NCBI GenBank assembly: GCA_963727625.1
Contig: CAVSHR010000004.1
Coordinates: forward strand, 800,001 to 864,000
From: an uncultured delta proteobacterium
GTDB taxonomy: Bacteria; Desulfobacterota; Binatia; UBA9968
Length of the DNA stretch: 64,000 nt
Direction: 5' to 3'
In this document: in pieces, positions 57,997 through 62,610 of the stretch
How the letters are laid out: each line of letters begins with the position of its first letter
How positions within the stretch are numbered: the first letter of the stretch is position 1
Position numbers and translations under genes: made by a program
Notes under the pieces: generated by a model
Databases searched by the model: none
Seen by the model: only the letters and a program-made list of their open reading frames with translations
What the model was told of the DNA's origin: nothing

Positions 57997-58180
57997 AGAC
58001 ACCTCATAGTTCAGGAAAACTTTGATCGATCGGAAGTAATCTCGCCAAATAGGTATCATCGCTGGACAAGACCGGTCAACCAGCGCAGTCAATTTCTCCC
58101 TTCTTAATCAGAAATGGCTGGACAAATGGCTGTTGGGTATCGATACTGGCGAGGCAAAGCGTTACTCTCCGAGTTCAACC

Positions 58181-61100
58181 ATGCCTGTGCCCATCGCAGC
58201 GATCTTCGTAAGCTCCACCTGGGTGGATTTGCAACCCGAACGGGCCGCCGTTGAAAAAGCGCTCCATCGCTTCCATGAGGCGAAGTTTGTCGGCATGGAA
58301 TATTTAGGCAGCCGCGATGAAACGACGCGCCGCGCATCGCTCGACGAAGTCGATCGCTCGCAGCTCTACGTTGGAATCTTCGCCGCTCGCTACGGGTCAG
58401 GGATCACCGAGGCGGAATATCGCCGCGCCCGAGAGCGCCAGCTCGATTGTCTAATTTATTTTAAAGCCGAAGACGCCATCGCGCCGGAGATGCGCGATGC
58501 CGACGCAGCGAGCGCGCAACGCTTGGCCGGCCTCAAAGAGGAATTGCGTCACCACACCGTCACGACGTTTTCGACCGCCGACGATCTCGCCGTTGAAGTC
58601 ACCGCCGACGTACACCGCTGGCTGTTTGATAAATTTCTCAAGGAACGTTTGCAGCAGGAATCGGTCGGCGAAATTTTTAGCTCAAAGACCGGTGAGATTA
58701 ATGCATCCGGCGCGGAAGCCTTCCGGCTCCAGGTCGGCTCATCGCTCGGCAGCGTCCTCTACGCGGCAGCCACGCCGGCACCGCGCCGCCGAACAACCCC
58801 GCTATTACCCAACGTCAGGCGCTTCCGCGGTTTGATCGATCGCACCATCGAAGTCGAAACCACGCTGGCGGCCCTGCCCACGGCGATACCCATCGAGATC
58901 CATGGCGAGACCGGCGTGGGCAAGACGGTGTTGCTGCGCACCATCGCGTATCATCCAAATTTGACCGGCAATCCCGATGGCGTCGTCTACCTCGACCGTG
59001 TCGGCGGCGAGCCCGCTGAAGACTTGCAGCAATGTTTGTACGAAAGTTTTTATGAAAGTGCGCCGCGGATCAAACCGCGCGAGGGCGAACTGCGCCAATT
59101 ACTGCGCGAACCGCGCGCCCTCGTTTTGCTCGATGATGTAACCCAACCCCAACCGGAGCTTGAGTCGCTCTTCAACCTACTGCCGAATTGCTTGTTTTGC
59201 ATCGCTTCCGAAGAACGACGCCTTCACGGCGAGGTTAAGGCGATCGCCCTCACAGGTTTGTCCGCCGCAGACGCGCTGACCTTGACCGAACGCGAGCTCG
59301 GCTCGACGCTTTCCGAAAAGGACCGCGCCGCGGCGCGCCAGCTCTGCGGGCAAGTCGATGGCATTCCGTCCCGGGTGATTTTGGCGATCGCGAGCGCGAA
59401 ACAACAAAGCATTCCTCTTGCTGATTTCGGCACGGCCGACGAATCCACTCGATCTTCCGAACAATCGCTGCGGCACAATATCGAGTCACGCAATACTACT
59501 GAGCGGCGCGTTCTGGCAATGCTCGGCGTGCTCGGCGCATTCGTCTCCAAGGACGCCCTTGCCGCCTGCCTGCCCTCCGGGTCTCTCGAGGCACCGTTGG
59601 AAGCGCTCGTGGATGGCAAATTGATCCAGATCGAGGGCAGCACGATCTCGTTATTCCATGGTGTGGCAAACGCCATGCAAACTGTAACCGACGCGGACGG
59701 AACCTGGCTTGAAGCTCTGCCCAGATTGGCCAGTTGGTCTGAACAACATCGTGCCAATGCCGAAGCGCTCTTGCTTAACTCGGAAGTGCTTCAACGGGCC
59801 ACCGACTGGGCGGCAAACCATGCCCAATGGCCCGAGGTTCTGCGCTTGGTGCACGCTCTCGAACCGACCTTGAGCGCCAGTGGTCGTTGGATGACGTGGG
59901 AGAAATTGCTTGACCTTGCCGCACGCGCCTCCGAAGCATTGGGTGATAGCGCGAGCCGTGCCTGGGCGCTGCATCAATTGGGCAGCCGGGCGATTTGCCA
60001 AGGTGAACGGGAGTCCGCAAATAACTTCTTGCAGCAGGCATTAGCCTTGCGCGTCGAGCTCGGCGACCATTGGGGCGCCGCGCTGACCCGGCACAACTTG
60101 GATCTCTTGCGGCCGCCCGTTTTACCCGGTGGCAGCAGCGCGCCACAGCCATCGGCGAAACACGATGGAGAAATCCCAACGGCTCGGTCCAAGCTAGCCA
60201 GGATTCCCCGCGTGCTTAAATTGACCGGCCTTGGAATCGTGGCGCTCGCCACCGGATTAGCCGCGCAAATTTTTTGGCGCCATGCGGCGATTCCGTTCAG
60301 GTTGGAATTCTCGCCGCCGAGTTTGGAGTTTGTGAGCGCGGCGCTCAATCAACCTAGCCCGGAGCAAACCCTGAGCGTCACCAATCCGGGAAACGCATCG
60401 CTGACCATCCGTAACGCGAGCCTTAGCGGCCCGAGCAGCGGCGCTTTCACTCTGATCGAAAACCGATGCGAGGCTAAACTGCTATCCCCTGGCTCTGCGT
60501 GCAGCGTTCGTCTACGCTTCACACCCGGTAGCACCGAACCAAGCACGGCCCGGCTGATCTTCAACGAAAGCGGCGGCGATCAAACCGCAACAATCGACCT
60601 GCGCGGCGGCATTGAATCGGCCCCCGAACCGACGGCCGCTCCGGTTTTGTCGGTACGGCCCGAATCGGTTGAATTCGGCGGTCGCGAGGTCGGCAACCGA
60701 GGGCGCATCGAGATTACCGTCATCAACAGCGGCAACGCTCCACTGCTGTTGGGCAAATCATCGATTGCCGGCAGCGCTGCCGAAGACTTTGCGGTGGCCC
60801 GCAACGCTTGCGCTAACAGGCCAATCGCACCGCAGGCCGAATGTGCCATCGATCTCACTTTTACTCCCCGCGCCGAGGGCGTGCGCGATGCCGCGCTGGT
60901 TTTAACCGCAAATGACGGCGCGCGCCAGCAAATCACGTTACGCGGCGCAGGAATTTCCCGGCCGGTCGGCGCGATCAGGGCGGAACCGGCCGAAGTGGGA
61001 TTCGGCGAAGTTGATTTACGTCGGCGCGCGGAAGGACAAATAAATCTTGTCCATGGCGGCGCTGCCGCCGTTGAGATCGGCAGAATTGCAATCCGTGGCA

Positions 61101-62476
61101 ACCAAGCCAGCGACTTCACCATCACCGCCAATGGCTGTCAGGGTATTACTCTAGCCGCAGGCAGACGCTGCCGGCTGATCGTAAGTTTTGCGCCGAGCGA
61201 GCCGGGCCGCCGCGAGGCGACCTTGATCATCGCCGACAACACCCCCACTGGCGAGCGCAGAATTCCGTTGACGGGTTTCGGCCGTACTCCAGCGGTGGCG
61301 CGCCTACAGTTCGATCCCGAATTCCTCGACTTCGGAGAACGCGCTCCGAATGCTCCGCCGTTGTTGCGCGGCGTTCTCGTTCGAAATAGTGGCAGGGTCG
61401 ATGTGCGCATGGGCCGCGCGGCAATTTTTGAAGCTAATGCGCGCAATTTTTCGATCAATTCCAATAGTTGCCAGGCTACATTGAGGCGTGAAGCGAGCTG
61501 CCGGATCACCGTAGCTTACCGAGCGCTGGCGGCAGGGGCGCACGACGCCGTGCTACGCATCGAATTTGACCGCGCCCGACGCGACATTGGACTGCGCGGC
61601 CATGCGTCAGCCAAGCCAATTCCGATCGCAGGTTTCGCCCCAAGGCGGCTCGACTTCGGCGAGCAAATTTTGCGCGGCCGGGGCGGGAGCCGGGATGTTA
61701 CCGTGCAAAACCGGGGAACCGGCGAGTTAGTCATCACCCGCGTGGAAATCAGCGGAAGCAACAGCTTCGCCGTGGCAAATCGCTGCACCACGCCGATCCG
61801 CGAGCGCGCCAGTTGCATGCTGCGCGTCAGCTTTTCACCGAGCACCCGCGGCCGCCAAAGCGCGGTTCTGCTCGTCGGCCACAACGCCGCCAACAGCCCT
61901 CAACGGATCCCTCTAAGCGGCGTCGGCGCTCTGCCTGCGACGCCGAACATCGACGTCAATCGCGAGCGCCTTCAATTTGGTGATCAGACGGCCGGCACCA
62001 CCAGCGCAGCACAAACGGTGACGATCACGAGCACGGGAGCGGCGCCTCTGGCGATCCGTGCGGTCTCCATTGAAGGCCGTCAAGCTGCTAATTTTACGAT
62101 GAGGGACGACTGTGCCAATCGGGTGCTTTCTCCTCGTGAGCGGTGTCAGATTTCCCTGCGCTTCGCGCCGAAGGCACAGGTGGCGGCCCGAGCTGCGTCA
62201 ACAAAGCAGCGCACCGCTGCTTTGGTCATCAACCATAATGCTGCGCGGAGTCCACGTAGAATCACCGCCAACGGCACGGCGGTGATAAAACCTACGAAAC
62301 CGGTAATTCCACGGGGTCTCAAGGTCGATCCCGATATCCGGGTTTTCGGGAGCGGCTGGTGCTGCACTAATGGTAGTGTTCAAAAATCAACACGCGCGCA
62401 GTGTGCCGAAAAGAAGGGAAGTTTCTTTGCGGACCAGCAAAGCGCTCAGAGCCGCTGCATTCCGGTCATTCGATAA
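58181..62476 (+). CDS. DUF4062 + STAND/NB-ARC-like NTPase + TPR + TM + six Ig-like (ASPM-SPD-2-Hydin/choice-of-anchor D) domains
   Basis: IFVSSTWVDLQPER...TEAEY; GETGVGKT, LVLLDDV, DGIP; AWALHQLG; TM LGIVALATGLAAQIFW; six repeats of F(G)-x-N-x-G...C...C; Cys-rich tail. Confidence 0.85.
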   Translation: MPVPIAAIFVSSTWVDLQPERAAVEKALHRFHEAKFVGMEYLGSRDETTRRASLDEVDRSQLYVGIFAARYGSGITEAEYRRARERQLDCLIYFKAEDAIAPEMRDADAASAQRLAGLKEELRHHTVTTFSTADDLAVEVTADVHRWLFDKFLKERLQQESVGEIFSSKTGEINASGAEAFRLQVGSSLGSVLYAAATPAPRRRTTPLLPNVRRFRGLIDRTIEVETTLAALPTAIPIEIHGETGVGKTVLLRTIAYHPNLTGNPDGVVYLDRVGGEPAEDLQQCLYESFYESAPRIKPREGELRQLLREPRALVLLDDVTQPQPELESLFNLLPNCLFCIASEERRLHGEVKAIALTGLSAADALTLTERELGSTLSEKDRAAARQLCGQVDGIPSRVILAIASAKQQSIPLADFGTADESTRSSEQSLRHNIESRNTTERRVLAMLGVLGAFVSKDALAACLPSGSLEAPLEALVDGKLIQIEGSTISLFHGVANAMQTVTDADGTWLEALPRLASWSEQHRANAEALLLNSEVLQRATDWAANHAQWPEVLRLVHALEPTLSASGRWMTWEKLLDLAARASEALGDSASRAWALHQLGSRAICQGERESANNFLQQALALRVELGDHWGAALTRHNLDLLRPPVLPGGSSAPQPSAKHDGEIPTARSKLARIPRVLKLTGLGIVALATGLAAQIFWRHAAIPFRLEFSPPSLEFVSAALNQPSPEQTLSVTNPGNASLTIRNASLSGPSSGAFTLIENRCEAKLLSPGSACSVRLRFTPGSTEPSTARLIFNESGGDQTATIDLRGGIESAPEPTAAPVLSVRPESVEFGGREVGNRGRIEITVINSGNAPLLLGKSSIAGSAAEDFAVARNACANRPIAPQAECAIDLTFTPRAEGVRDAALVLTANDGARQQITLRGAGISRPVGAIRAEPAEVGFGEVDLRRRAEGQINLVHGGAAAVEIGRIAIRGNQASDFTITANGCQGITLAAGRRCRLIVSFAPSEPGRREATLIIADNTPTGERRIPLTGFGRTPAVARLQFDPEFLDFGERAPNAPPLLRGVLVRNSGRVDVRMGRAAIFEANARNFSINSNSCQATLRREASCRITVAYRALAAGAHDAVLRIEFDRARRDIGLRGHASAKPIPIAGFAPRRLDFGEQILRGRGGSRDVTVQNRGTGELVITRVEISGSNSFAVANRCTTPIRERASCMLRVSFSPSTRGRQSAVLLVGHNAANSPQRIPLSGVGALPATPNIDVNRERLQFGDQTAGTTSAAQTVTITSTGAAPLAIRAVSIEGRQAANFTMRDDCANRVLSPRERCQISLRFAPKAQVAARAASTKQRTAALVINHNAARSPRRITANGTAVIKPTKPVIPRGLKVDPDIRVFGSGWCCTNGSVQKSTRAQCAEKKGSFFADQQSAQSRCIPVIR

Positions 62477-62610
62477 TCGCCGATCATGATGATTTGCGCT
62501 TTAACTTTCATGGATCGTGCGAGTGGTGCCGCGCGCATCCCACGCGCAAGATTTTCTTGCATTCGCGCGCGCGCTATTCTATGTTTGCAATAGTTTAGCG
62601 CGGATCAACT

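Follow-up and report, generated by a model that had tools for sequence, protein, structure and literature searches.

Can a bacterial NLR-like protein (NLR, nucleotide-binding leucine-rich-repeat) monitor events beyond the cytoplasmic membrane, with its sensor and its switch in a single polypeptide? To our knowledge, the characterised NLR/STAND immune sensors of bacteria and eukaryotes all detect their ligands in the cytoplasm, and sensing of the outside is left to other receptor classes. The question is raised by one gene within a 64,000-nucleotide stretch of DNA (hereafter the window) from an uncultured delta proteobacterium of the Binatia (UBA9968 lineage; assembly GCA_963727625.1, contig CAVSHR010000004.1, positions 800,001 to 864,000). 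Its coding sequence (58181..62476, on the + strand, as are all features below; positions are those of the window) specifies 1431 amino acids (aa) plus a stop codon. An original prediction, made from the letters of the window, described the product as a type II membrane receptor with a DUF4062 effector, a STAND NTPase and tetratricopeptide (TPR) helices inside the cell and six immunoglobulin (Ig) domains outside. The reading that we favour, with a little better than even confidence, is that of a single-pass inner-membrane NLR-like abortive-infection sensor activated by clustering or perturbation of its periplasmic stalk. In the proposed layout a NIR (DUF4062) head, an NB-ARC-type STAND NTPase and a TPR-like arm would lie in the cytoplasm, and a six-domain stalk carrying a four-Cys cap at its tip would stand in the periplasm.

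The open frame that contains the gene (58133-62476) is single and uninterrupted, and from the ATG at 58181 it yields a protein of the same length as the copy present in a protein collection (P0002). The intact frame and its claimed layout were thereby confirmed, and all of the motifs quoted for it (FVSST, TEAEY, GETGVGKT, LVLLDDV, GIP and WCC...C...C) are present in the translation. The full layout recurs in protein clusters P0003-P0029, drawn from NCBI, ENA, JGI and Logan assemblies; over the first 720 residues their identity ranges from 81% to 35%. Twenty-four protein clusters were aligned, and this alignment is the family to which the conservation counts below refer. Recurrence of the full layout in the 24 aligned clusters excludes an assembly chimera, which had been named as a possible refutation. 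The recommended search for the same architecture elsewhere thus found these clusters as well as a wider STAND-TPR-transmembrane-Ig superfamily.

The amino-terminal head, switch and arm

Residues 1-160 (58181..58660) make up the NIR/DUF4062 TIR-like domain, identified by a PF13271 match, an AlphaFold2 (AF2) model and fold matches. The Pfam match spans aa 8-83 (E 2.1e-15; 57.1 bits against a cut-off of 24.7). A model of aa 1-200, built with AF2 on a 44-sequence alignment, reached a mean predicted local distance difference test (pLDDT) score of 79.7 and was compared with approximately 48,000 solved chains in a fold search independent of Foldseek. The top matches were a mix of TIR domains and nucleoside-deoxyribosyltransferase-like enzymes, headed by the RPS4 TIR domain (Z 12.8, root-mean-square deviation (rmsd) 3.8, 144 residues aligned) and including the cytidine monophosphate (CMP) hydrolase MilB (Z 12.1, rmsd 3.2, 132 aligned), the TIR domains of RPP1 and Caenorhabditis elegans TIR-1 (Z 11.7) and a nucleoside deoxyribosyltransferase (Z 11.6, rmsd 2.9, 119 aligned). 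Foldseek returned the same families amid flavodoxin-like noise. As modelled, the head has the flavodoxin-like beta-alpha fold common to TIR domains and nucleoside deoxyribosyltransferases. At the sequence level, phmmer aligned the head with the solved KpSwz DUF4062 chain (E 0.0034) and, faintly, with human TEP1 (E 0.22).

Experimental reports describe DUF4062 as an NAD+-depleting anti-phage effector whose activity requires a conserved Glu, namely E97 in KpSwz and E108 in PsAvs2 (10.64898/2026.05.01.722283, 10.64898/2026.09.04.749371). Several anti-phage systems are described as using the domain as their effector, among them an Avs2 STAND protein that carries it N-terminally (10.64898/2026.09.04.749371), and Evangelion is reported as another DUF4062 family (Ibarra-Chavez et al. 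2026, preprint). In the window protein, conservation and the KpSwz alignment single out a T76-E77-A78-E79 motif (58406..58417), with E77 kept in all 24 family members and E79 in 23. In the phmmer alignment E79 stands opposite an Ala of the solved KpSwz chain, which we infer to be the E97A substitution of that construct. E79 would then be the putative catalytic Glu, equivalent to KpSwz E97 and PsAvs2 E108. The predicted fold, with the RPS4 TIR domain as its best match, bears out the description of DUF4062 as TIR-like. The head is followed by a linker with short beta elements (aa 161-225; 58661..58855), for which AF2 places strands at 163-168, 180-185 and 191-196 with pLDDT values of 53-68.

The STAND nucleotide-binding domain (NBD; aa 226-360, 58856..59260) was assigned from an NB-ARC match and from invariant residues. 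NB-ARC scored 31.4 bits over aa 238-335 (Pfam cut-off 23.5), and the NACHT profile reached 15.4 bits, lower than NB-ARC and under its own cut-off of 26.7. Walker A (GETGVGKT, aa 242-249; 58904-58927) contributes the invariant residues G242, G245, G247 and K248, and Walker B (LVLLDDV, aa 314-320; 59120-59140) contributes D318 and D319; these six and R346 are identical in 24/24 sequences. The putative helical and winged-helix part of the module (aa 361-540; 59261..59800) contains the GxP motif (GIP, aa 394-396; 59360-59368), in which P396 is invariant and G394 nearly so. The predicted STAND NTPase with Walker A, Walker B and GxP is therefore confirmed and is of NB-ARC type. A hydrophobic stretch at aa 444-462 (Kyte-Doolittle (KD) value 1.71) was considered as a membrane segment and rejected, as it holds K457 and D458 and falls within the winged-helix part; it is probably a buried core helix of the STAND module.

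Beyond the switch lies a short TPR-like arm (aa 541-645; 59801..60115) that ends in a conserved TRHNLD motif, of which H638, N639, L640 and D641 are invariant. Of the TPR-like helices in the original prediction, a weak likeness stood, to the Pins/LGN TPR proteins of the PDB (phmmer E 0.009-0.06), whereas the Pfam TPR_12 match (aa 566-624) reached 22.5 bits, below the cut-off of 30.1. The arm comprises approximately 100 aa, and the cytoplasmic part would end near residue 645.

Predicted membrane segment, outer domains and topology

A Pro-rich, basic and poorly conserved linker (aa 646-676, 60116..60208; 10-43% identity across the family) connects the arm to a predicted transmembrane helix at aa 677-699 (60209..60277), with the sequence RVLKLTGLGIVALATGLAAQIFW and a KD value of 1.65 over 19 residues. 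An uncharged Gly/Ala/Leu-rich stretch occupies this position in every one of the 24 family members while the sequence itself drifts, and its KD value ranges across the family from 1.2 to 2.7, reaching at least 1.6 in 16 of them. The wider family was collected by an exhaustive phmmer search with aa 540-830 against 1.84 billion representatives (50% identity). It gave 16,324 matches at E up to 0.001, mostly Ig arrays, and 32 of the 150 best matches also cover the TPR part and hence the TPR/helix/Ig junction. A segment with a KD value of at least 1.5 is found in 30 of these 32 representatives, approximately 30-60 residues past the xRHNL motif and before the Ig domains, and in 17 of the 32 it reaches 2.0-2.96; only P0262 and P0310 have no clear hydrophobic segment.

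The outer region (aa 705-1365; 60293..62275) consists of six choice-of-anchor-D/ASH (PapD-like) beta-sandwich domains, matched at 60302-60565, 60632-60919, 60926-61246, 61262-61570, 61586-61894 and 61901-62194. The NCBIfam model choice_anch_D (NF012200) scored 314.4 bits over six stretches (cut-off 45), a genome search confirmed the same six places, and the Pfam Cep192_D4, ASH and HYDIN Ig-like families also matched in six stretches, Cep192_D4 with an E-value of 5e-41. One Cys pair, spaced by 10-11 residues, occurs in each domain, and four further Cys residues occur in the tail. An AF2 model of the sixth domain (Ig6) plus the tail had a mean pLDDT of 85.8, and the Ig6 model resembled CEP192 SPD-2 (Z 13.7, rmsd 1.9, 104 aligned residues), a Porphyromonas protein (Z 12.5) and the Ig domain of VesB (Z 11.2). 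Six disulfide-type Ig repeats had been proposed; the number and the Cys pairs hold, and the stalk is probably disulfide-stabilised, whereas the domains are, by their modelled fold, ASH/PapD-like sandwiches. Its profile matches place the protein in the NB-ARC-type STAND and DUF4062/NIR families and show choice-of-anchor-D domains as well.

The stalk ends in a C-terminal four-Cys module (aa 1391-1431; 62351..62473), recognised from conservation and from the AF2 model, in which the WCC...C...C pattern spans aa 1393-1426. AF2 folds its approximately 40 residues into a hairpin-helix-strand-helix arrangement (pLDDT 81-89); the module was folded jointly with Ig6, and the fold-search matches are those of the Ig domain. 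It is present in 20 of the 24 family members as the unit [W/Y]CC-x8-10-C-x~17-C, with four Cys residues (C144, C145, C158 and C176 in the numbering of the fragment) invariant in 21 sequences. In some relatives the unit is repeated in tandem, nine times in P0287 (aa 1261-1630) and four times each in P0305 (aa 1080-1232) and P0326 (aa 1010-1209). It was found in 25 of 375 proteins compared, all 25 of which belong to the STAND-TPR-transmembrane-Ig superfamily. A tblastn search of 50,697 phage records gave no match to the cap at E up to 1, and an Atlas feature search gave nothing above 0.78. The WCC tail appears to be an undescribed small disulfide-rich module. Three relatives (P0025, P0027 and P0028) have an extra C-terminal domain of approximately 120 aa after it.

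Several features of the sequence bear on orientation. The helix of the window protein is flanked by charges of +5/0 on its N side and +2/-1 on its C side. In 30 relatives, Lys plus Arg residues are more numerous in the N flank than in the C flank in 17, equal in nine and fewer in four; Cys density rises from 0.78% before the helix to 2.12% after it, and the number of Cys residues after the helix is even in 27. A crude hydropathy rule called a signal-peptide-like N-terminus in 70 of 110 non-NLR homologues of the Ig array (of the other 40, many appear to be truncated), compared with 2 of 89 soluble DUF4062-STAND-TPR relatives and none of 28 members of the family itself; the window protein likewise has no N-terminal signal peptide. 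Both the head, which depends on cytoplasmic NAD+, and the NTPase, which depends on ATP, should lie inside, and the stalk should lie outside the cytoplasm because it is made of exported-type domains with paired Cys residues. Helix position, flank charges, the Cys pattern and the exported-type Ig domains together point to an N-in/C-out topology. A genome search found two Omp85-family proteins and LpxC, which indicates a diderm cell and hence a periplasmic stalk. The type II receptor of the original prediction thus retains agreement among several lines of evidence, with a helix of only borderline hydrophobicity, and its extracytoplasmic array is most likely outside the cytoplasm, in the periplasm and not at the cell surface.

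Modular relatives, signalling model and rival explanations

The core formed by STAND, TPR and transmembrane parts is combined with different modules at both ends. Among the 32 junction-spanning representatives only five have a NIR head, about 14 have a short head of 75-95 aa and the remainder have other heads of approximately 200-250 aa, zinc ribbons also being among the alternatives. On the same STAND core, P0031 joins zinc ribbons to NB-ARC, helix and Ig domains, P0030 has a helix followed by a PD40/WD40 propeller, and P0108 and P0118 fuse NIR-NACHT to 7-8 predicted membrane segments. In soluble relatives, 800-1000 aa in length, DUF4062 is joined by many TPR families in place of the helix and Ig stalk. 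Exchangeable heads and distal modules round a constant NTPase have been described as the pattern of NLR-like conflict proteins (Kaur et al. 2020/2021, Kibby et al. 2022), and the swapped heads and outer modules seen here are the signature expected of an NLR.

A short conserved head type (...GDISGQVAVGNNILQIGSIHGGVVN..., within the first 60 aa) was observed in the NIR-less proteins P0237, P0263, P0270, P0304, P0305, P0326, P0349 and P0369, and also in P0310, P0280, P0350 and loci L084-L155. Its phi-Q-phi-G core recalls, by sequence, the RHIM/BASS3 amyloid signalling motifs that bacterial NLRs are reported to carry at their N-termini (Dyrka et al. 2020, preprint). Within 3 kb of the 12 motif-filtered NLR ORFs (open reading frames) from 79 metagenome loci, no neighbouring ORF with a matching C-terminal motif was found by a crude regular expression on contigs many of which are short. 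Full-length relatives come from metagenome-assembled genome (MAG) records labelled Chloroflexota, Verrucomicrobiia, Acidobacteria/Blastocatellales, Heliobacteriaceae and Syntrophobacter, labels that should not be taken at face value.

The gene is patchily distributed and evolves fast. When the full-length protein was searched against 24 other genomes of the genus, three gave a match, at identities of 65%, 61% (in a copy truncated by the end of its contig) and 36%; the 16 genomes surveyed from elsewhere in the order gave none. Several of the genomes surveyed are incomplete. In G006 and G021, the two matching genomes with sufficient flanking sequence, the gene lies between NMT1-type binding-protein and thiolase-like genes, as in the window, and in two others (G014 and G018) the same flanking genes are adjacent, 95-300 bp apart, with no trace of it. 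What varies between genomes is the presence or absence of this one gene, at a position bordered by conserved metabolic genes. The gene also diverges far faster than its flanks: relative to the window, the NLR-like gene is 65% identical in G006 and 35% in G021, against 92% and 84% for the thiolase-like gene and, in G006, 85% for the NMT1 binding-protein gene and 90% for the OCD gene. Comparison with the closest relative (P0003) locates the divergence within the protein, since the head, NTPase and TPR arm are 84-88% identical while the linker falls to 33%, the helix to 60% and Ig1-2 to 50-54%.

In the model that we favour, molecules at rest would be monomeric and ADP-locked. An envelope event would bind or crowd the periplasmic stalks, the likeliest being phage tail or ejection proteins crossing the periplasm, or a local distortion. 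Gathering of the stalks would raise the two-dimensional concentration of the cytoplasmic parts, the STAND modules would oligomerise with ATP and close into rings, and the NIR heads would meet and hydrolyse NAD+, leading to arrest of the infected cell (abortive infection). STAND proteins and NIR/TIR enzymes are described as firing by oligomerisation (10.64898/2026.09.04.749371, 10.64898/2026.05.01.722283). Clustering is favoured here because the flexible Pro-rich linker and the small-residue-rich helix make a rigid push-pull relay unlikely. Sensing of a surface, a phage or a neighbouring cell had originally been proposed; with the array in the periplasm of a diderm, a surface or a neighbouring cell is less likely to be sensed than events in the envelope. 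Possible, though we advance it only tentatively, is the more specific proposal that the ASH-Ig stalk and WCC cap detect an intruder crossing the envelope (a predator in the periplasm, the spike of a secretion system, or the tail or ejection proteins of a phage), that NIR fires before the invader genome is expressed, and that this chassis with exchangeable death heads (NIR, other domains or RHIM-like Q-x-G motifs) represents a large unrecognised class of envelope-guarding NLRs.

A number of observations weigh against the periplasmic clustering model. The hydrophobicity of aa 677-699, taken alone, is borderline, eight of the 24 family members have values of 1.2-1.5 at this position, below 1.6, and the positive-inside signal is weak outside the clade of the window protein. 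It is not apparent how a conformational signal would pass through the flexible linker, the cap stays conserved between distant clades, and with a variable helical and winged-helix part recognition could be intracellular. PADLOC, with models dating from 2023, matched no Avs/AVAST model in the protein, its sole match being mad8 (E 1.4e-4 over 50 aa of the P-loop), and matched none of 21 flanking ORFs, which cover approximately 23 kb upstream and 1.5 kb downstream in the window. No RNA dataset containing the sequence is among the seven runs listed, and the DNA runs all represent small shares.

Some of these observations would be explained if the protein were a membrane-tethered NLR that senses in the cytoplasm, its helix and stalk serving to anchor or position it (for example at phage entry sites) or to prevent auto-activation, and its variable helical/TPR part binding the trigger. 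Divergence within the cytoplasmic region is greatest in residues 361-540 (46-49% identity, compared with 77-81% in the NBD), the linker is flexible and poorly conserved, and the characterised NIR systems, as described, sense intracellular phage proteins or processes (terminase, portal, replication). We consider such a tether unlikely, given that the TPR arm is short beside the many TPR families of the soluble relatives, that a conserved stalk of four to six or more domains with a cap exceeds the needs of an anchor, and that sensor-like alternatives such as the PD40 propeller are swapped onto the same core; the divergence between the closest pair also peaks in Ig1-2 and not in the cytoplasmic part. 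Conservation of the cap raises a different alternative, as across distant clades it is more in keeping with a host ligand than with a phage ligand that changes quickly. The stalk and cap might hold a host component (peptidoglycan or an outer-membrane partner), and loss of contact through interbacterial attack, periplasmic predators, lysins or stress would lead to NAD+ depletion and regulated death, making the protein a sensor of envelope integrity or invasion that is not specific to phages. The periplasmic position of the stalk in a diderm and the occurrence of the cap in tandem repeats, as for a constant ligand, agree with this, and Zorya and Kiwa are described as sensing perturbation (PMC13434031). 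The absence of a match to the cap in the phage genomes or the Atlas ties it to no partner, however, and a gene that is patchily distributed and evolves fast is more readily explained by an arms race than by surveillance of a housekeeping kind; we judge this explanation improbable.

It would be surprising if aa 677-699 were not a membrane helix and the whole protein were cytoplasmic, with its ASH domains serving, like those of eukaryotic CEP192 and HYDIN, as a repeat sensor inside the cell. The low KD values in this and eight related proteins, the lack of an N-terminal signal peptide and the presence of cytoplasmic eukaryotic ASH domains among the closest solved folds would suit such a protein, but the segment is uncharged, conserved in position and strongly hydrophobic in over half of the wider relatives, conserved Cys pairs and even Cys counts appear only after it, and bacterial homologues of the array are mostly signal-peptide proteins. 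More surprising still would be a surface or periplasmic structural protein or adhesin whose NTPase regulates display from the inside out and whose DUF4062 domain is inactive or regulatory. A 67%-identical homologue is named by NCBI only as a 'choice-of-anchor D domain-containing protein', and homologous arrays occur in proteins labelled adhesin-like or enzyme-bearing. Strict conservation of the putative catalytic Glu and the Walker motifs and the exchange of the head for other death-type heads are difficult to reconcile with this role, and in a diderm the array would reach no surface without a further secretion step.

Comparison with known systems places the window protein among NIR-STAND proteins while setting its outer part aside. 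PsAvs2 and other NIR(DUF4062)-STAND-TPR proteins, as described by Le Mouellic et al. 2026 (10.64898/2026.09.04.749371), share an N-terminal NIR head with the conserved Glu, a central STAND NTPase, a C-terminal sensor region (putative in the window protein), a single gene and NAD+ depletion as the expected output. PsAvs2 differs in being soluble and activated by phage terminase inside the cell; the window protein has a short TPR arm followed by the predicted membrane helix and periplasmic Ig stalk, and has no PADLOC Avs match. Swarozyc (KpSwz; Osinski et al. 2026, 10.64898/2026.05.01.722283) and Evangelion (Ibarra-Chavez et al. 2026) use the same effector family and are activated by higher-order assembly, but in their descriptions an auxiliary helical domain replaces the STAND NTPase and neither a membrane segment nor an Ig array appears. 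STAND NTPases joined to membrane segments are reported among bacterial NACHT/STAND proteins (Kaur et al. 2020/2021, Kibby et al. 2022), and 'transmembrane STAND ATPases' are named in a preprint of 2025 that deals with protease-effector modules. Those classes are multi-transmembrane or NACHT-type by description, whereas the window protein combines one helix, an NB-ARC-type switch, an ASH-Ig stalk, a WCC cap and a NIR head. A study of diversity-generating retroelements predicts periplasmic lectin domains on STAND proteins. The words transmembrane, extracellular and Ig-like are absent from the main text of three 2026 preprints on DUF4062, and we found no description in the literature searched of DUF4062 or NB-ARC joined to a helix and ASH/choice-of-anchor-D domains, although proteins of this layout may figure in the supplementary tables and trees of the preprints. 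All six outer domains belong clearly to the choice-of-anchor D family (NF012200), whose typical members are secreted and have no cytoplasmic signalling part.

Functionally, the nearest systems may be Kiwa, Zorya and SNIPE (PMC13434031), in which, as described, phage entry is signalled to an effector in the cytoplasm by an inner-membrane protein that has a periplasmic part. There is no sequence or domain relationship; those systems are multi-protein or nuclease-based and spare the cell, while the window protein is one chain with an NLR switch and a predicted NADase. Conceptually, the nearest would be the Toll-like and interleukin-1 (IL-1) receptors, which likewise have an ectodomain, a single helix, a cytoplasmic TIR-type domain and clustering driven by the ectodomain. 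They are type I proteins that have leucine-rich-repeat (LRR) or Ig-superfamily ectodomains, use TIR as a scaffold and lack an NTPase; the window protein is predicted to be N-in type II with its effector N-terminal, and neither TIR (PF01582) nor LRR nor Ig-superfamily families are among the 19 Pfam families listed for it. The parallel to IL-1R/Toll drawn in the original prediction thus holds as analogy, with the opposite orientation and an NTPase interposed, and the overall interpretation is supported in part, for its real, conserved, NLR-type architecture, its TIR-like head and the predicted N-in/C-out topology. If the protein does read a signal from beyond the cytoplasm, it would be a bacterial counterpart of Toll-like receptors with a built-in NTPase, cytoplasmic NLR logic and outside sensing could be fused in one chain to give early-warning abortive infection at entry, and the system would be a simple model for whether clustering alone can fire an NLR. 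If the stalk is a mere tether, the protein would be one more architectural variant of the NIR-NLRs described in 2026. The gene anchors a sizeable uncharacterised superfamily and carries a small Cys-rich module that appears to be new.

Insertion sites and gene neighbourhood

In the window the gene is adjoined by the NMT1-type binding-protein gene and the thiolase-like gene, and its isolation among metabolic genes, noted originally, was confirmed over the same 21 flanking ORFs. Upstream (34937-58092) lie three NMT1-type binding-protein genes, two Amidohydro_2 genes, genes for thiamine pyrophosphate (TPP) enzymes, a molybdopterin oxidoreductase and 2-oxoacid:ferredoxin oxidoreductase subunits, an AMP-binding ligase gene and an OCD/mu-crystallin gene, which together look like a catabolic cluster unrelated to the NLR-like gene. 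The G+C content of the gene is 0.60-0.62, against 0.54-0.58 in the flanking genes (window 58000-62500); this could reflect an Ala/Gly/Arg-rich composition or foreign origin. Promoter and terminator scans at the gene gave scores no better than those of shuffled sequences. In the 6.6-Mb genome a profile search found DUF4062 only once, and the six domains of the 58181-62476 gene are the sole above-cut-off matches to choice-of-anchor-D. Occupied and empty sites still align in their coding flanks but not in their intergenic DNA, and no repeats or attachment-like sites are definable at the indel boundaries. One of the genomes with an empty site (G018) has three copies of the thiolase-like gene on contigs C3, C6 and C7, each 91-92% identical to the window gene and on C3 and C6 accompanied by NMT1, which suggests a mixed-strain bin or a segmental duplication.

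A second site of recurrence was seen in Acidobacteria-labelled MAGs. In seven loci (L021-L024, L033, L035 and L053) the homologue stands alone between two genes of menaquinone (futalosine-type) biosynthesis, with a CofH/MqnC-type radical-SAM gene on one side and, in six of the seven, VitK2_biosynth on the other. L024 and L053 contain split copies, one of which comes from a long-read 'tig' contig and may be an error. Beside the homologue, L022 adds a C5 DNA methylase and an HNH nuclease, and L035 adds a NACHT-FGE-sulfatase protein and XisH/XisI, such that the site looks like a small hotspot for defence genes.

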